A stretch of 64,000 nucleotides of DNA, from the NCBI RefSeq assembly GCF_044324785.1, contig NZ_CP172127.1. One strand, written 5' to 3'. The notes below the pieces were generated by a model. The model had not been told where the DNA came from. It saw only the letters and a list, made by a program, of their open reading frames with translations, and ran no database searches. The position numbers and the translations under genes are program-made. Source of the stretch: Escherichia coli (GTDB lineage: Bacteria; Pseudomonadota; Gammaproteobacteria; Enterobacterales; Enterobacteriaceae). Below, piece after piece: positions 7,681 to 14,889 of the stretch. The stretch's first letter is position 1. Each line of letters opens with the position of its first letter.

Positions 7681-7705
7681 AACCTAATTTACAGGAACAC
7701 AGAAC

Positions 7706-8530
7706 ATGCAAAACATTACCCAGTCCTGGTTTGTCCAGGGAATGATCAAAGCCACCACCGACGCCTGGCTGAAAGGCTGGGACGAGCGCAATGGTGGTAA
7801 CCTGACGCTGCGCCTGGATGACGCCGATATCGCGCCTTATCACGGCAACTTTCATGCACAACCGCGCTATATTCCGCTCAGCCAGCCCATGCCTTTACTG
7901 GCAAATACACCGTTTATTGTCACCGGCTCCGGCAAATTCTTCCGCAACGTCCAGCTTGATCCTGCGGCTAACTTAGGCGTCGTAAAAGTCGACAGCGACG
8001 GCGCGGGCTACCACATTCTCTGGGGGCTAACTCACGAAGCCGTTCCAACCTCTGAACTTCCGGCGCACTTCCTCTCTCATTGCGAACGCATTAAAGCCAC
8101 CAACGGTAAAGATCGGGTGATCATGCACTGCCATGCCACCAACCTGATCGCCCTTACCTACGTACTGGAAAACGACACCGCGGTCTTCACTCGCCAACTG
8201 TGGGAAGGCAGCACCGAATGTCTGGTAGTGTTCCCGGATGGCGTCGGCATTTTGCCGTGGATGGTGCCCGGCACCGACGAAATCGGCCAGGCGACCGCAC
8301 AGGAAATGCAAAAACATTCGCTGGTGTTGTGGCCCTTCCACGGCGTCTTCGGCAGCGGTCCGACACTGGATGAAACATTCGGTTTAATCGACACCGCAGA
8401 AAAATCAGCACAAGTATTAGTGAAGGTTTATTCGATGGGCGGCATGAAACAGACCATCAGTCGTGAAGAGCTGATAGCGCTCGGCCAGCGTTTCGGCGTT
8501 ACACCACTCGCCAGTGCGCTGGCGCTGTAA
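7706..8530 (+). CDS. rhaD: Rhamnulose-1-phosphate aldolase
   Basis: 274-aa [40 protein letters not shown]..., class II aldolase. Confidence 0.95.
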
Positions 8531-8539
8531 GGAGCAAAC

Positions 8540-8854
8540 ATGATCCGCAAAGCCTTTGTCATGCAGGTTAACCCCGACGCCCACGAAGAGTATCAGCGTC
8601 GGCATAATCCAATCTGGCCGGAACTGGAAGCAGTGTTGAAATCTCACGGTGCGCATAACTACGCCATTTACCTCGACAAAGCGCGTAATCTGCTGTTTGC
8701 CACGGTAGAGATTGAATCTGAAGAACGGTGGAATGCGGTAGCCAGTACTGATGTTTGCCAACGTTGGTGGAAATATATGACCGACGTTATGCCAGCTAAC
8801 CCGGATAACAGCCCAGTCAGTAGCGAGCTGCAAGAAGTGTTTTACCTGCCTTAA
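8540..8854 (+). CDS. rhaM: L-rhamnose mutarotase
   Basis: 104-aa [49 protein letters not shown]..., immediately downstream of rhaD. Confidence 0.92.
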
Positions 8855-8894
8855 TGAGTTGCGGTGCCGGAAAATATCCAGCACCGCGCCTTCA

Positions 8895-10289
8895 TCAGAA
8901 GAAGTATTTAAAGCGAACGCGTGCGCCGTAACGGTCATCAGTATCATCACCGTGTTTTTTATCACCGTCGCTATCCAGAATGGAGTAATACGTCCCGAGG
9001 TAAATATTAAAGTTCTCCATATCCATCACATTAGCGAACTGATAAGACGCATGAATGGTGTGAATGGTGTACGTCCCTTCATCATCAATCCAGCAGTCGT
9101 TATCACAAACTACACCGCTGAATTCATCAATCTTATTGTGCGCGTAGATATAACCCAGCTCGAAACGTTTCCACAGCGCGTTAATCCCGGCAGTGAAATC
9201 TTTCTCATTATTAGCATCTAAATAGGCGGTATTAAGATTAACCACGACACCATTTTCCGGATCCGTTTTTAGGCCATTCCAGGTCATGCTCATACCATAG
9301 CCGGTACGATCGGACTGATCGACAAAATTACCCTTGCTATCGGTATAACCATAAGCATTATTTACCACGTTCGCTTCCATCGCTGCGGAAACGGTAAATT
9401 CTTCCGTCGGCGACCAGGCAATTACCGGACGCAGATAAGCAACATTTTTCTGCTGCTCCATATCGCGTCCATGATAATTACCGTCATTATATAAAGATGT
9501 TCCGTCTTCAAGTAACGTGTTTAATTCAAAATACCAGTTATCGAGTTGTTTGCTGACGAGGAAATTACCGCCAGCGTTAGAGCGCCCGCGGCCCTCTTTC
9601 ATCATATAGATATAACCGCTGCCATCGTCATAAAGATCGTTCGCAGTATTACCGGAATGTTCAACAAAGGTATCCTGATTCAGCGGGAACATATCGTAGG
9701 CTTCAAAACGGCCTACTTTGACCTTCCAGTCGTTTTCTTTGCCAAAGAAGAATACCGCATCATCGATATTTACTGAACCGTGCATGTCCCCCAGCGGTTG
9801 TGCGGAGAACCCGGCGAAATAACCATTATCCAGTTTTCGCATACCATCAAAACCTAACAGAATACGACCATTGAGATTCCACTGTTCATTAGTGGGATCG
9901 CTATTCACATCAGCGTTGGTCATTGCCAGCAGGCCATGATTACTTTCTGCATCCATATTAAATTCTACGTCGCCGTAGATTTTTAAATCGCCATAACCTG
10001 AGAGCAAAAGATTAGGTGAGGTGGAATTTTTCTTTGCAGATTCCGCCGTTGCCTGTCCATTTACCGGCGTATTGCCCTGGGCAGCCTTAATTTCGCGGAT
10101 CTCAGCGGCTTGTTGTGTCTGCAGCTGTTTAACCTGGCTCTCTGCTTTTGCTGCCCGCATTTCTGCCGCTTCCAGGCGTTCTTCCAGCAATGCCATGCGT
10201 TGTTCCAGCGTTAAATGCTGTGTTTTTGCCATTCCGGTACTACATGCCAATAATAAACCGATGGCTAAAGATAATGTCGATTTTTTCAT
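8895..10289 (-). CDS. Outer-membrane carbohydrate-type porin with N-terminal coiled-coil extension (ScrY/LamB-like)
   Basis: 464-aa ORF; signal peptide MKKSTLSLAIGLLLACSTGMA; about 60 residues of heptad-like helix (LEQRMALLEERLEAAEMRAAKAESQVKQLQ); aromatic/Gly-rich beta-strand-like body; C-terminal RFKYFF typical of OMPs; AT-rich upstream region 10290..10640. Confidence 0.7.
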   Translation of the reverse strand: MKKSTLSLAIGLLLACSTGMAKTQHLTLEQRMALLEERLEAAEMRAAKAESQVKQLQTQQAAEIREIKAAQGNTPVNGQATAESAKKNSTSPNLLLSGYGDLKIYGDVEFNMDAESNHGLLAMTNADVNSDPTNEQWNLNGRILLGFDGMRKLDNGYFAGFSAQPLGDMHGSVNIDDAVFFFGKENDWKVKVGRFEAYDMFPLNQDTFVEHSGNTANDLYDDGSGYIYMMKEGRGRSNAGGNFLVSKQLDNWYFELNTLLEDGTSLYNDGNYHGRDMEQQKNVAYLRPVIAWSPTEEFTVSAAMEANVVNNAYGYTDSKGNFVDQSDRTGYGMSMTWNGLKTDPENGVVVNLNTAYLDANNEKDFTAGINALWKRFELGYIYAHNKIDEFSGVVCDNDCWIDDEGTYTIHTIHASYQFANVMDMENFNIYLGTYYSILDSDGDKKHGDDTDDRYGARVRFKYFF

Positions 10290-10765
10290 TATTTACGTTC
10301 CCTGAAATAAAGGAGACCCTACGCTTTCCAAAAGGAATACATATATAGGGAAATATAAGGTGTGCACTTTCGAATTTTTAATCCAACTTCAGCAGACCGA
10401 TGGATAGTATCCCGCCATATAATATGAGTAAATCCGCTGATTTCCTGGAACGTGAGGAATATAACAATAGTGCCGTTTTTAACTAAATATCGTAAAAAAT
10501 ATTAGATATGATTCACGCTGACTCATAAGCCACAAATATAAATAACCTTGCTGCAAAACATGTGCGGCAGTTAAACATTCACAACATCATTAAATAATGA
10601 TTTTTTATTCACTGCATTTATTTTGTCCATCAATATGTGCCTTACACCGCAAAATTTATCCTTCACTCTGCCTTATATTGTCACGACTTCACGACATATC
10701 CGCGCTCATCACAAAACCGCCCCGCCGTTACAATTAACTATAATATTTTTTCATGGAGTCCAATA

Positions 10766-11276
10766 ATGGCAGCACTTACTGCAAGCTGTATTGACCTGAA
10801 TATTCAGGGCAATGGCACTTATTCCGTTCTGAAGCAGTTGGCGACAATGGCGTTACAAAACGGTTTTATCACCGACTCACACCAGTTCCTGCAAACTCTG
10901 CTGCTGCGCGAAAAAATGCACTCCACCGGTTTTGGTTCCGGCATCGCCGTGCCGCACGGTAAAAGCGCCTGCGTTAAACAACCGTTCGTGTTATTCGCCC
11001 GCAAAGCGCAGGCCATTGACTGGCAGGCCAGCGATGGCGAAATTGCTGGAGCGAACAGGAACGACGTTTTCGTGGATTTTTTATTACCCTCGCCCAACCG
11101 GTTGAGGTGAATAACGAAGTCGTTAACCATGTGCTGATCGCCTGTGCCGCCGCCGATGCGCGTCATGAGCTAAAAATATTTAGCTATCTGGCAAGCGTAT
11201 TGTGTCAGCATCCGGCAGAGGTTATTGCCGGGTTAACAGAATATGAGGCATTTATGGAGTTACTTCACAGGGGGTG
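10766..11276 (+). pseudogene. frvA: PTS EIIA (fructose-like) component FrvA, apparently frame-disrupted
   Basis: N-terminal EIIA-2 region MAALTASCIDLNIQGNG...GSGIAVPHGKSAC...WQASDGE runs to a stop at 11110; the expected C-terminal EIIA segment VNNEVVNHVLIACAAADARHELKIFSYLASVL... is in a different frame (stop 11276). No frvB/frvX/frvR follow. Confidence 0.6.
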
Positions 11277-11280
11277 AACG

Positions 11281-11305
11281 GTGTCGGATGCGCCGCATCC
11301 GACAC
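11281..11305. other. Perfect 25-bp hairpin (REP-like) at frvA / yiiG junction
   Basis: gtgtcggatgcgccgcatccgacac is a perfect inverted repeat; no flanking T-run on the plus strand. Confidence 0.5.
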
Positions 11306-11332
11306 TGCATTTATCACCACAATCAAAAACGT

Positions 11333-12582: not shown

Positions 12583-14889
12583 CTACATTCCATAACGTTC
12601 AGAAATAGCAGCATGCTTCTCTTCATTCGCCCCGGCTTCTTTGGCAAGACGCCACCAGCACAACGGATGTTCCCAGTCAGCGGTCAATTCGTGCAAGGTC
12701 TTATCGATATCACCTTTAGAAACTGAACGCGGCGCGCTGATAACAAAGTAGAACGCGGGCAGCGGCTGTGCATCTTCTCCCTGCTGGCTGTCCGTTAACG
12801 TATAGTCCTCGTTACTGTTGCTCCAGTAGTACCAGTTTCGTTCACGGAGCGCCTCACGGAAGACATTAAACTGTTCTTCCCCAGGCATGACACCTTCACA
12901 GAACCAGGACTCGCCGTACTCAGTCGGGATAATGGTTTGCAGGCAGGCATAAAGTGGCGTGAAATTCTTCCGTTCTTCCTCATCCTCTGGTTGGGTGTTC
13001 AACATTTCTGCATCGAATACCACAACTTCATCAACATGTTGCGGATAATCGGTCCGGTAAGTTGGCTCAATGATCCTTGCTGTTACCGGCCCAATACGTT
13101 GAGCATAGTAATAGCGGTATTCATAATTTTCCCGGAAGCGAATGTTTAGCAGCCCCCATTTTTCGTCGATAAAACCTTCACCTTCCGTAAGTTCGATTTC
13201 CAGTTCAGCAGCAATAGCACGAACCAAATCCCATTGTTGCAGGATGCTGGCGGTCGCCATGATATCCCACTGGAGATTTCGAATATCTTCTTCACGGCTA
13301 ATCATCAGTTGCTGCAATTGTTGTAAATAATCCAGCTGTCGATCCCAGGCTTCCTGTTTTTGTGCTGCCCAGGAGCACATGCGATAAACGCCAACCCATT
13401 CACGCCCTTTTTCGTTTTGCAGCAACTGTTGCCCAATCGACTCCAGTTCACTCCAGTCTTCCTGTTGGTTGATCACTCGCGCACGGAACCACAAGGCCAT
13501 ATGTAGCAGCCCCGCCTGTTCATACTGCTTCGCCAGGTGCTCAATGGTTTGCAGATCGTCACGGTGGAGCAATAAATCCAACAGATCGAAGCAGAGATTG
13601 TTATCTTCCTGGAGGTGGCTTTCGACGTAGCGTTGCAGAAGTTCAATCGACTCATCAATCGCATTACAGGCATTTAACGCATTGACCAGTTTGCCCAGCA
13701 ATTCCGCATCATCTGGCGCGTTCAGGTAAGCGCGGCGGAATGTTTCGACGTCTTTTTCTGGATCTGGCTGCGTTTCTTCGTCGCTATTTTCAGGTACTTC
13801 TACAACCGGACGAGCAAGCAACTCCGCCTCTTTGGCGGCGATTTTTTCACTCAGTTCGAGAAACTCGCGATCAACCCCCAGTAACGCGCGTAATTTTGGC
13901 ATGTGTCGCTGGGCCAGTTTCATCGCTATTTTGGCAACCCAGACGGATTCACGCTCCAGCGCCAGGGTGATTTGCAGTTTTGCCAGATTAACCACTTTGC
14001 GATGCGCCCCGGCCTGTGAACGTTGCTCCAGCATTTTCTGGATGATGCGCGCCAGTTGCCAGTTGTTTCTTTGTGGATGACGGGGAAGTAACACAGTAAT
14101 GATTTTCAGCCATGACCCCCATGAATGGGGAGTCAGATCTGACCAACGCGGTAATTCCTCCCAGACTTCTTCGTCCTGCCCGCATAACGCCATGATGTAC
14201 AGTTTTTTGAGGTGATTACTAATGCGGTCGCGGCCCCAGTAATCATTGGCTTCTGTCAGCTCATCAATCAGTATGCGTGCTTCATCATAACGCTGAAGTT
14301 CAATCAGAATATCGGCACGAGTATAAAGTAATGCATCAATATCATCTTCCCCGGCTGCTTTAACTGCGTCGATTTGTCGATCCAGATAAGCCAGTGCCTC
14401 CTCTATTCTTTTGGAATCTATCAGTGCACTGGCATATTCAGTGGACAAACACTGAAAACAGCTCCAGGTCGGATCAATCCGCGCGATGGTTTCTTCACAT
14501 ACCGCCATGCGTTCATTCGCCCAGCCAGGTGCATCAATATTTTCGTAGCAGGCGGATAAATCCTGGGTAACGCAGATAGATTGTGGGCAATCTTTTGTCT
14601 CTTCCCGGTGCGCTTTTTCAAACAGCGCCACCACGTCTGGCAGTACTTTTTCGCCTTCTTCGCGGTTAGTGAGACGATGGCGCATTTCCCAATGACCAAT
14701 AAAAATCTCCAGCCACGGATTTTTTGCCACCTGGGTAAGTGCTTTTACTTCAGGTAACAGCGAATCGCACTTTTCCATTTGCAGGTGCATAACGCCTTCC
14801 GAATAATCATCGATAAGTTGCGGAATATACTCCTGCCCGGCATCGCGTAACTCCTTAGTATATTTGTGATACCACTCCCATATATCCAT
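12583..14889 (-). CDS. Large acidic helical-repeat protein of unknown function, operon partner of the GHKL ATPase
   Basis: 768-aa ORF, start 1 bp downstream of the preceding gene's stop (translational coupling); Trp/Glu/Leu-rich, predicted alpha-helical (TPR/HEAT-like by eye); no catalytic motif recognised. Confidence 0.6.
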   Translation of the reverse strand: MDIWEWYHKYTKELRDAGQEYIPQLIDDYSEGVMHLQMEKCDSLLPEVKALTQVAKNPWLEIFIGHWEMRHRLTNREEGEKVLPDVVALFEKAHREETKDCPQSICVTQDLSACYENIDAPGWANERMAVCEETIARIDPTWSCFQCLSTEYASALIDSKRIEEALAYLDRQIDAVKAAGEDDIDALLYTRADILIELQRYDEARILIDELTEANDYWGRDRISNHLKKLYIMALCGQDEEVWEELPRWSDLTPHSWGSWLKIITVLLPRHPQRNNWQLARIIQKMLEQRSQAGAHRKVVNLAKLQITLALERESVWVAKIAMKLAQRHMPKLRALLGVDREFLELSEKIAAKEAELLARPVVEVPENSDEETQPDPEKDVETFRRAYLNAPDDAELLGKLVNALNACNAIDESIELLQRYVESHLQEDNNLCFDLLDLLLHRDDLQTIEHLAKQYEQAGLLHMALWFRARVINQQEDWSELESIGQQLLQNEKGREWVGVYRMCSWAAQKQEAWDRQLDYLQQLQQLMISREEDIRNLQWDIMATASILQQWDLVRAIAAELEIELTEGEGFIDEKWGLLNIRFRENYEYRYYYAQRIGPVTARIIEPTYRTDYPQHVDEVVVFDAEMLNTQPEDEEERKNFTPLYACLQTIIPTEYGESWFCEGVMPGEEQFNVFREALRERNWYYWSNSNEDYTLTDSQQGEDAQPLPAFYFVISAPRSVSKGDIDKTLHELTADWEHPLCWWRLAKEAGANEEKHAAISERYGM

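Follow-up and report, generated by a model that had tools for sequence, protein, structure and literature searches.

The 64 000-nucleotide stretch of Escherichia coli DNA analysed here (RefSeq assembly GCF_044324785.1, contig NZ_CP172127.1; referred to below as the window) carries a gene for a putative outer-membrane porin between rhaM and a remnant of frvA, one of the frv phosphotransferase system (PTS) genes. The porin gene and rhaM form a convergent pair with 40 bp between their stop codons, and the GC-rich hairpin in this gap is probably a terminator common to both (Table 1). At the other end of the porin gene a Shine–Dalgarno sequence (AGGGAA) lies 8 nt 5' of the ATG, and the divergent frvA remnant starts at 10766, beyond an AT-rich spacer. 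The GC content of the rha genes is 50–57% compared with 34–37% in this spacer (10290–10765), and that of the porin gene itself is lower than in its flanks. The list of open reading frames and the GC content confirm what an earlier reading of the sequence alone (the original prediction) had described, namely a 464-residue reading frame on the minus strand with AT-rich DNA upstream and convergent to rhaM. No rafB or other raf remnant was found in the window upstream of the porin gene, nor are there raf genes elsewhere in the window, and an Rfam scan of positions 8500–11300 gave no match.

A Pfam search with the porin produced one strong match, to PF16966 (Porin_8, 'porin-like glycoporin RafY'; E = 3.7e-154), which covers the entire model (positions 1–372 of 372) over residues 104–464; the same family is matched by all 46 of the 46 aligned relatives. 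PF02264 (LamB) matched neither the window protein, even at a domain E ≤ 10, nor any of the 46 relatives, and PF00267 (Porin_1, OmpF/OmpC type) was also without a match in these proteins, the likeness to that type being in the fold only. A scan against NCBIfam gave no family match, so the RefSeq name 'carbohydrate porin' does not come from an NCBIfam hidden Markov model. In thousands of genomes the gene is annotated under this name, and BL21(DE3), O157:H7, Nissle 1917 and numerous further strains have it at the position that it holds in the window. The PF16966 family is small, with 233 clusters (50% identity) at E ≤ 0.001 among 1.84 billion representatives, and many of its members comprise 350–390 residues and have no N-terminal extension.

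RafY is said to have been described by Ulmke and co-workers in 1997 from the raffinose operon of plasmid pRSD2. The window protein shows 78.9% amino-acid identity to the porin encoded after rafR-rafA-rafB-rafD on IncF plasmids, which stands in here for plasmid RafY; the four preceding genes encode a LacI-family regulator, an α-galactosidase, a major facilitator superfamily (MFS) permease and a glycoside hydrolase of family GH32. Both porins have 464 residues, belong to the same Pfam family over their full length and have in common the N-terminal motif LTLEQRMALLEERLEAAE and the C-terminal KYFF. The window gene differs in being chromosomal and solitary, without adjacent rafR, rafA, rafB or rafD, and in possessing its own conserved promoter region with a site resembling those of the cAMP receptor protein (CRP), which is absent from the plasmid copy. 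The signal-peptide and linker sequences also differ, and the ratio of nonsynonymous to synonymous substitution rates (dN/dS) between the window and plasmid genes, 0.14, is above the values for chromosomal orthologues. On this sequence evidence the porin is the chromosomal orthologue of plasmid porin RafY (PF16966, TCDB 1.B.15), and the gene is an already annotated, experimentally uncharacterized accessory member of a known family. Two papers bear on its occurrence without the raf genes: a 2016 study of O157:H7 comparative genomics describes rafRABD as absent and 'a rafY homolog annotated as rafY2' as present (PMC4809568), and a 2026 study reports a complete rafABD operon in only 23 of 45 rafY-carrying E. 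coli isolates (PMC12987596).

The protein begins with a classical signal peptide for Sec-dependent export (MKKSTLSLAIGLLLACSTGMA/KTQH, where the slash marks cleavage), as had been proposed from the sequence, and the predicted signal peptidase I (SPase I) site GMA/K matches LLLVANTGFA/K in the orthologues. The heptad-like helix proposed to follow was likewise found, although it is shorter than the approximately 60 residues first claimed. Residues 22–70 are free of proline and glycine, and in one heptad register 11 of the 14 a/d positions are hydrophobic; AlphaFold2 (AF2) predicts a single long helix over residues 28–71 (about 45 residues). The sugar-porin N-terminal family PF11471 (Sugarporin_N) gives a weak match to residues 27–54 of the window protein (E = 0.06), and among the 46 relatives it is matched at E ≤ 0.001 by five and at E ≤ 0.1 by 14, the best E value being 5.9e-7. 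The N-terminal extension would be a module common to ScrY and the RafY-family porin, unlike the barrel. Between helix and barrel lies a low-complexity linker, which holds most of the amino-acid differences among E. coli alleles.

The AF2 model, calculated from an alignment of the 46 relatives (25–85% identity), has a mean predicted local distance difference test score (pLDDT) of 80.5 and a predicted template-modelling score (pTM) of 0.71. It consists of a signal helix, the helix described above, the linker and 16 long β-strands between residues 100 and 463, in agreement with the β-barrel-like body originally proposed. The last predicted strand comprises residues 449–463 and the protein ends in ...RFKYFF, the aromatic C-terminus that had been noted from the sequence. 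In OmpF-type porins the L3 constriction loop sits between strands 5 and 6. The corresponding strands of the model are joined by a 45-residue loop (195–240), in or beside which lie Gly193, Asp206, Tyr228 and Arg236, invariant across the family in the 46-relative alignment, and this loop would be the L3 constriction loop. An insertion in the loop that joins predicted strands 13 and 14 carries a CxxxC pair (VVCDNDCW; residues 395–399, window 9093–9107, minus strand). Within the family only the long enterobacterial members have this pair (13 of the 46 aligned sequences), which may form a disulfide.

In a structural comparison twelve 16-stranded porins rank above ScrY and LamB. The 16-stranded trimeric porins OmpF/OmpC/OmpU, OprP, VhChiP and DcaP have no detectable sequence similarity to the window protein (8–15% identity in the structural alignments) and belong to another Pfam family. 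At about 365 residues the window barrel is larger than theirs and has additional long loops, including the one with the CxxxC pair. DcaP of Acinetobacter baumannii likewise pairs a 16-stranded barrel with a coiled coil at its N-terminus. ScrY (PF02264 and PF11471) also has a periplasmic N-terminal coiled coil before a sugar-permeable barrel, as in the window porin, but the LamB family is described as 18-stranded (PMC4827864) compared with 16 strands in the model. The same source, where it treats family 1.B.15, gives a TCDB prediction of 16 strands (PMC4827864), and the model places the barrel in the 16-stranded class. Only the coiled-coil module would be common to the window porin and ScrY. 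The original prediction of a ScrY/LamB-like porin thus holds where the architecture is concerned (a signal peptide, then a coiled coil and a barrel) and fails for membership of the LamB/ScrY family; its broader proposal of a sugar-porin-type outer-membrane channel is supported.

Orthologues with 66–85% identity lie directly convergent to rhaM in more than ten genera of the Enterobacteriaceae, at about 35 species-representative loci. These include several Citrobacter species (among them C. rodentium), Kluyvera, Pseudocitrobacter, Superficieibacter, Trabulsiella, Klebsiella spallanzanii, K. michiganensis, K. grimontii, Raoultella terrigena and several Enterobacter-like genomes. The far flank varies, being occupied by frvA in Trabulsiella, as in E. 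coli, and by a helix–turn–helix (HTH)-cupin gene followed by azlCD in many Citrobacter. In K. spallanzanii, K. grimontii, R. terrigena and Enterobacter sp. JUb54 (loci L021, L022, L027 and L028) chromosomal rafRAB genes directly precede the porin gene on the same strand, giving the order rafRAB–porin with rhaM convergent, and their products are 65–76% identical to the plasmid proteins. In the window the porin gene is not linked to oligosaccharide catabolic genes (the raf operon); such linkage was found only for Klebsiella, Raoultella and Enterobacter orthologues (the four loci above, L024 and L034), and it is a matter of gene context, not a defining property of the protein family. Klebsiella, Raoultella, Erwinia and Rahnella also have more distant paralogues (≤65% identity), which lie away from rhaM and follow genes for an MFS permease and a GH32 hydrolase.

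To judge from this shared gene order, the convergent arrangement of the porin gene and rhaM predates the split between Escherichia, Citrobacter, Kluyvera and Klebsiella. The adjacency of rhaM and frvA in K-12 was correctly stated in the original prediction, since DH1, a K-12 derivative, has a 300-bp spacer here without the porin gene. The conclusion drawn from it, that the gene is a lineage-specific insertion, is contradicted by the orthologues, and K-12 represents the state that lacks the gene. More than ten genera, and 47% of complete E. coli genomes, have the gene at this position, which is largely the conservation named in the original prediction as counting against it. The simplest reading is of a porin gene long established beside rhaM, with K-12 carrying the allele that lacks it. 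A plasmid-borne copy was also observed. On the conjugative IncI-gamma/K1 plasmid pRHB27-C22_5 (CP057400.1; locus L092, 1621–7589) Klebsiella-type MFS permease and GH32 genes are joined to a 2.75-kb porin-rhaM-rhaD' copy that is 98.7% identical to window 7701–10450, and the breakpoint coincides exactly with the edge of the CRP-like site.

Within E. coli the junction exists in two states. Full-length porin is present in 2557 of 5426 complete genomes (47%) and a K-12-type filler in 2826 (52%). In DH1 this filler consists of 164 bp of unrelated sequence (L005, 2357–2520) in place of window 8856..10630. Its two forms differ by about 12% (≥99% identity in 2137 genomes and 80–90% in 690), suggesting that both states of the junction are old. 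The filler was considered as a decayed porin fragment and this was rejected, as its best local alignment score with the porin region was 26 compared with 22.4 ± 2.3 (maximum 29) for shuffled sequences; it had no match in any of the fetched loci.

Comparison of the window gene with those of BL21, O157:H7, Nissle, E69, C. rodentium and Kluyvera gave dN/dS values of 0.02–0.09 (Nei–Gojobori), with dS within E. coli of up to 0.39. None of the five E. coli alleles examined has a disrupted reading frame, and the only indel among the compared alleles is a deletion of exactly one heptad, residues 31–37 (RMALLEE), from the B2 allele of Nissle 1917 (L093, 2501–3874). The porin gene is intact and under purifying selection, a pattern unlike that of a decaying remnant, and the low dN/dS together with the conserved CRP-like promoter suggests a working gene. 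Nissle 1917 has lost the entire frv operon together with the 5' portion of yiiG but keeps the porin gene. The E69 allele (L013, 5650–7395) has dS = 0.39 and dN = 0.007 relative to the window, with 78% identity upstream, and the other compared E. coli alleles lie far below it (dS 0.06–0.23); it may be old or have been imported from another Escherichia lineage.

The regulatory region is otherwise poorly conserved in its spacer but contains the element TGTTA-N6-TCACG, which almost every rhaM-linked orthologue from Escherichia to Superficieibacter carries 177–242 nt 5' of its start codon. It is absent from the raf-linked Klebsiella/Raoultella copies, plasmid rafY and the distant paralogues. The half-sites are fixed and the six central bases vary (TATTCC, GATTCC, TCTCGC, CCTTGC and others). 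The core of CRP sites is TGTGA-N6-TCACA, with which the element agrees at eight of ten core bases, and fixed half-sites around a free centre fit a CRP site. A conserved TTTAC, the candidate −35, follows 18–19 nt 3' of the element, and a candidate −10 hexamer lies a further 15–17 nt on; its form differs across genera (GATAAT/TACTAT, TAAT/TACT/TAGT type) with the −35/−10 spacing kept. This spacing puts the centre of the palindrome at about −61.5, the position typical of class I CRP-dependent promoters, and predicts a leader of about 105 nt, with the transcription start near window 10397 (minus strand). On these sequence features the solitary chromosomal porin gene would have a catabolite-controlled promoter, with CRP as its putative regulator.

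A hairpin of 5–8 bp about 30–50 nt 5' of the ATG was seen by eye in every orthologue (window 10330–10345, minus strand; L006, L012, L021, L025, L037 and L041). The stems are unrelated in sequence (TTCC/GGAA, GTCTTCCG/CGGAAGAC, AAAATC/GATTTT and GGTGAG/CTCACC) and are followed by a conserved TCTTTATTTCAAGGAA. RNAalifold found no consensus structure in the 5' leader because the leader alignment was out of register. The hairpin may represent a structured leader or the target of a small RNA (sRNA).

Table 1. Features at the porin locus, in window coordinates (a slash marks the predicted cleavage point).
Feature	Position	Strand	Details
rhaM (L-rhamnose mutarotase), conserved convergent neighbour	8540..8854	plus	ORF list, annotation, synteny
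GC-rich hairpin between convergent stop codons (probable shared terminator)	8861..8887	none	−21.1 kcal/mol, z = −3.96; equalled by 0 of 200 shuffles
Porin coding sequence	8895..10289	minus	Sole long ORF of the interval; 464 residues plus stop; ATG start
β-Barrel domain, residues 98–464	8898..9998	minus	16 predicted strands, long loop 195–240, C-terminal ...KYFF
Low-complexity linker, residues 72–97	9999..10076	minus	Rich in A, T, S, N, K and P; AF2 pLDDT <50
Periplasmic coiled-coil extension, ScrY type (Sugarporin_N-like), residues ~25–71	10077..10217	minus	Heptads, AF2 helix, PF11471
Signal peptide, residues 1–21	10227..10289	minus	Predicted SPase I site GMA/K; orthologues LLLVANTGFA/K
AT-rich intergenic region, porin gene to divergent frvA stump	10290..10765	none	GC 34–37%
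Inferred core promoter	10404..10432	minus	−35 TTTACT (10427–10432), 17-nt spacer, −10 TACTAT (10404–10409)
CRP-like site TGTTA-N6-TCACG	10451..10466	minus	Only match in the window, 0.13 expected by chance; centre ~61.5 nt 5' of inferred start

Taken as a whole, these observations are best explained by a chromosomal glycoporin of the RafY family that forms a wide diffusion channel and is expressed from its own CRP-activated promoter (estimated probability about 0.8). The protein would assemble into a trimeric, wide, water-filled and non-saturable channel through which di- and trisaccharides such as raffinose, sucrose and maltose, together with other solutes, could diffuse across the outer membrane, and the periplasmic coiled coil would hold or stabilize the trimer, as in ScrY. 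Transcription would start from a weak promoter of its own activated by cAMP–CRP at TGTTA-N6-TCACG near −61.5, so that the channel would be made when preferred sugars are scarce. A 1998 paper by Andersen and co-workers reportedly states in its title that RafY is not carbohydrate-specific.

For plasmid RafY only, published work cited in several papers describes a general diffusion pore that admits di- and trisaccharides, as opposed to a binding-site porin like LamB (PMC4809568, PMC4827864, PMC12987596). RafY-family channels are reported to be wider than the major porins. In K. pneumoniae the RafY-family porin GlyP is reported to serve as an alternative wide channel whose up-regulation compensates for the loss of OmpK35/36 and which improves nutrient uptake in the absence of the major porins (bioRxiv 10.64898/2026.03.29.715108), and a Salmonella RafY homologue with 58% identity, RS06040, is described as induced by the disaccharide lactulose (PMC13304739). 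GlyP is encoded in a LacI-regulator/permease/hydrolase/porin operon with a dedicated LacI-type repressor, and no such regulator gene lies beside the E. coli gene; the paralogues whose permease/hydrolase/porin layout resembles that of the glyP operon are only approximately 60–63% identical to the window protein and not linked to rhaM. One possibility is that the E. coli porin serves the uptake of raffinose via LacY, a route raised in the O157:H7 study (PMC4809568).

Several points weigh against this interpretation. No experiment on the chromosomal gene was found, and what is said here of expression, trimer formation and permeability derives from homologues no more than 79% identical. The porin-carrying E. 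coli have no adjacent rafA or rafB, which bears on the physiological substrate. The number of strands comes from a predicted model, and a sequence search of PDB chains gave chance hits only (E ~0.8), so no solved relative is detectable by sequence. A generic sigma-70 scan found four sites compared with 5.3 expected and none at the conserved element, the site there being below threshold. The assignment to CRP consists of the eight-of-ten core match and conservation only, and another regulator could bind the element. The AT-rich upstream region could also mean that the gene is silenced by H-NS under laboratory conditions.

This last point also bears on the alternative that the gene survives as a silent relic, once the last gene of a chromosomal raf operon now lost, and is neither expressed nor functional in E. 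coli. Such an origin would account for the absence of adjacent rafRAB from E. coli when Klebsiella and Raoultella retain rafRAB–porin at this site, and for the fact that half of the E. coli genomes do without the porin; AT-rich upstream DNA is compatible with H-NS silencing, and a study of mice infected with K. pneumoniae reports little detectable anti-RafY antibody (PMC13410258). A silent gene would not, however, be expected to show the dN/dS of 0.02–0.09 at dS values of up to 0.39, five intact alleles out of five, or an indel that keeps the heptad register. In addition, the promoter-like elements and the Shine–Dalgarno sequence are conserved in genera in which the gene is solitary (Citrobacter, Kluyvera), and this alternative is considered unlikely.

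The view contained in the original prediction, of a substrate-specific oligosaccharide porin of the ScrY/LamB family that was inserted in one lineage and serves the rhamnose or frv PTS genes, is largely refuted and now very improbable. It is consistent with the ScrY-matching architecture and the weak Sugarporin_N match, with the low GC content of the gene and its AT-rich upstream DNA, with the absence of the porin from K-12 and with the adjoining positions of the RafY and sugar-porin families in the TCDB tree, as described in one source (PMC4827864). Against it stand the failure of PF02264 to match either the window protein or its 46 relatives, the 16 strands and the ranking of ScrY and LamB below twelve 16-stranded porins, and the occupation of the same slot in many genera and in almost half of E. 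coli. Transcription is convergent to rhaM and divergent from frvA, and B2 strains without the frv operon still keep the porin gene.

A channel for rhamnose-containing oligosaccharides that is co-regulated with rhaBADM would explain why the adjacency to rhaM is kept in about 35 species representatives while the other flank varies between frvA, rafRAB and HTH-cupin with azlCD. The conserved adjacency may nevertheless be mere inherited gene order. The genes are convergent with a hairpin between their stop codons, the porin gene has its own promoter-like region, and its same-strand operon partners are raffinose genes (rafR-rafA-rafB in Klebsiella/Raoultella) or MFS and GH32 genes, never rha genes. 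The functional link to the rhamnose or frv PTS genes suggested originally is not supported by these observations, and a rhamnose-linked role is highly unlikely. Still less credible is a lipoprotein: the L-L-A-C16 of the E. coli allele formally fits a lipobox within the signal-peptide region, but Cys16 is confined to E. coli-type chromosomal alleles, with a similar LLAC in two plasmid-RafY-like clusters, and this reading was rejected as the rhaM-linked orthologues elsewhere (Citrobacter, Kluyvera, Klebsiella) have no cysteine there and a normal SPase I site. Differently placed GAC/GC matches to the lipobox pattern occur near residues 12–15 in five more distant homologues.

Two neighbouring regions were also noted. 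In window 10766–11330 (plus strand) frvA is cut to a stump of about 92 codons that is fused to a 3' fragment of frvR, with frvB, frvX and most of frvR deleted. E. coli 06-00048, the only genome covering the whole query among the matches listed, carries the same frvA/frvR scar, annotated there as two pseudogenes. Past yiiG, window 12583–14889 (minus strand) holds a 768-residue open reading frame annotated as 'hypothetical protein' beside a gene for an 'ATP-binding protein', the stretch extending to about 15300; in E. coli 06-00048, unlike the window, fdhD follows directly after yiiG. This stretch is present in 246 of 5426 E. coli genomes, for example in SMS-3-5 at 97% identity, and may be an accessory island.

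The persistence of both alleles in E. coli allows a more speculative proposal, which is tentative and somewhat doubtful. The rhaM–frvA junction may be an old balanced presence/absence polymorphism in which the porin, as a CRP-activated 'hunger' channel without a dedicated operon, widens permeability to oligosaccharides at the price of antibiotic entry or exposure to phages and colicins. Raffinose, for example, would then be handled by LacY and MelA, and the trade-off would explain why both alleles persist.

With the gene annotated in thousands of RefSeq genomes and the porin family already described, the discovery value of these results is small. The new points are modest: an ancestral gene order that includes a chromosomal raf cluster, the alternation of porin and filler in E. 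coli and the conserved CRP-like promoter. The porin is nevertheless one outer-membrane difference between K-12 and widely used or pathogenic strains such as BL21(DE3), O157:H7 and Nissle 1917. A RafY-family channel of Klebsiella is reported to compensate for porin loss in carbapenem-resistant strains (bioRxiv 10.64898/2026.03.29.715108), and from this compensation and the width of RafY-family channels the E. coli porin could affect the use of oligosaccharides in the gut, permeability to antibiotics and susceptibility to phages and colicins. As a gene that is ancestral at its site and was lost in K-12, it is also a warning against reading 'absent from K-12' as 'inserted'.

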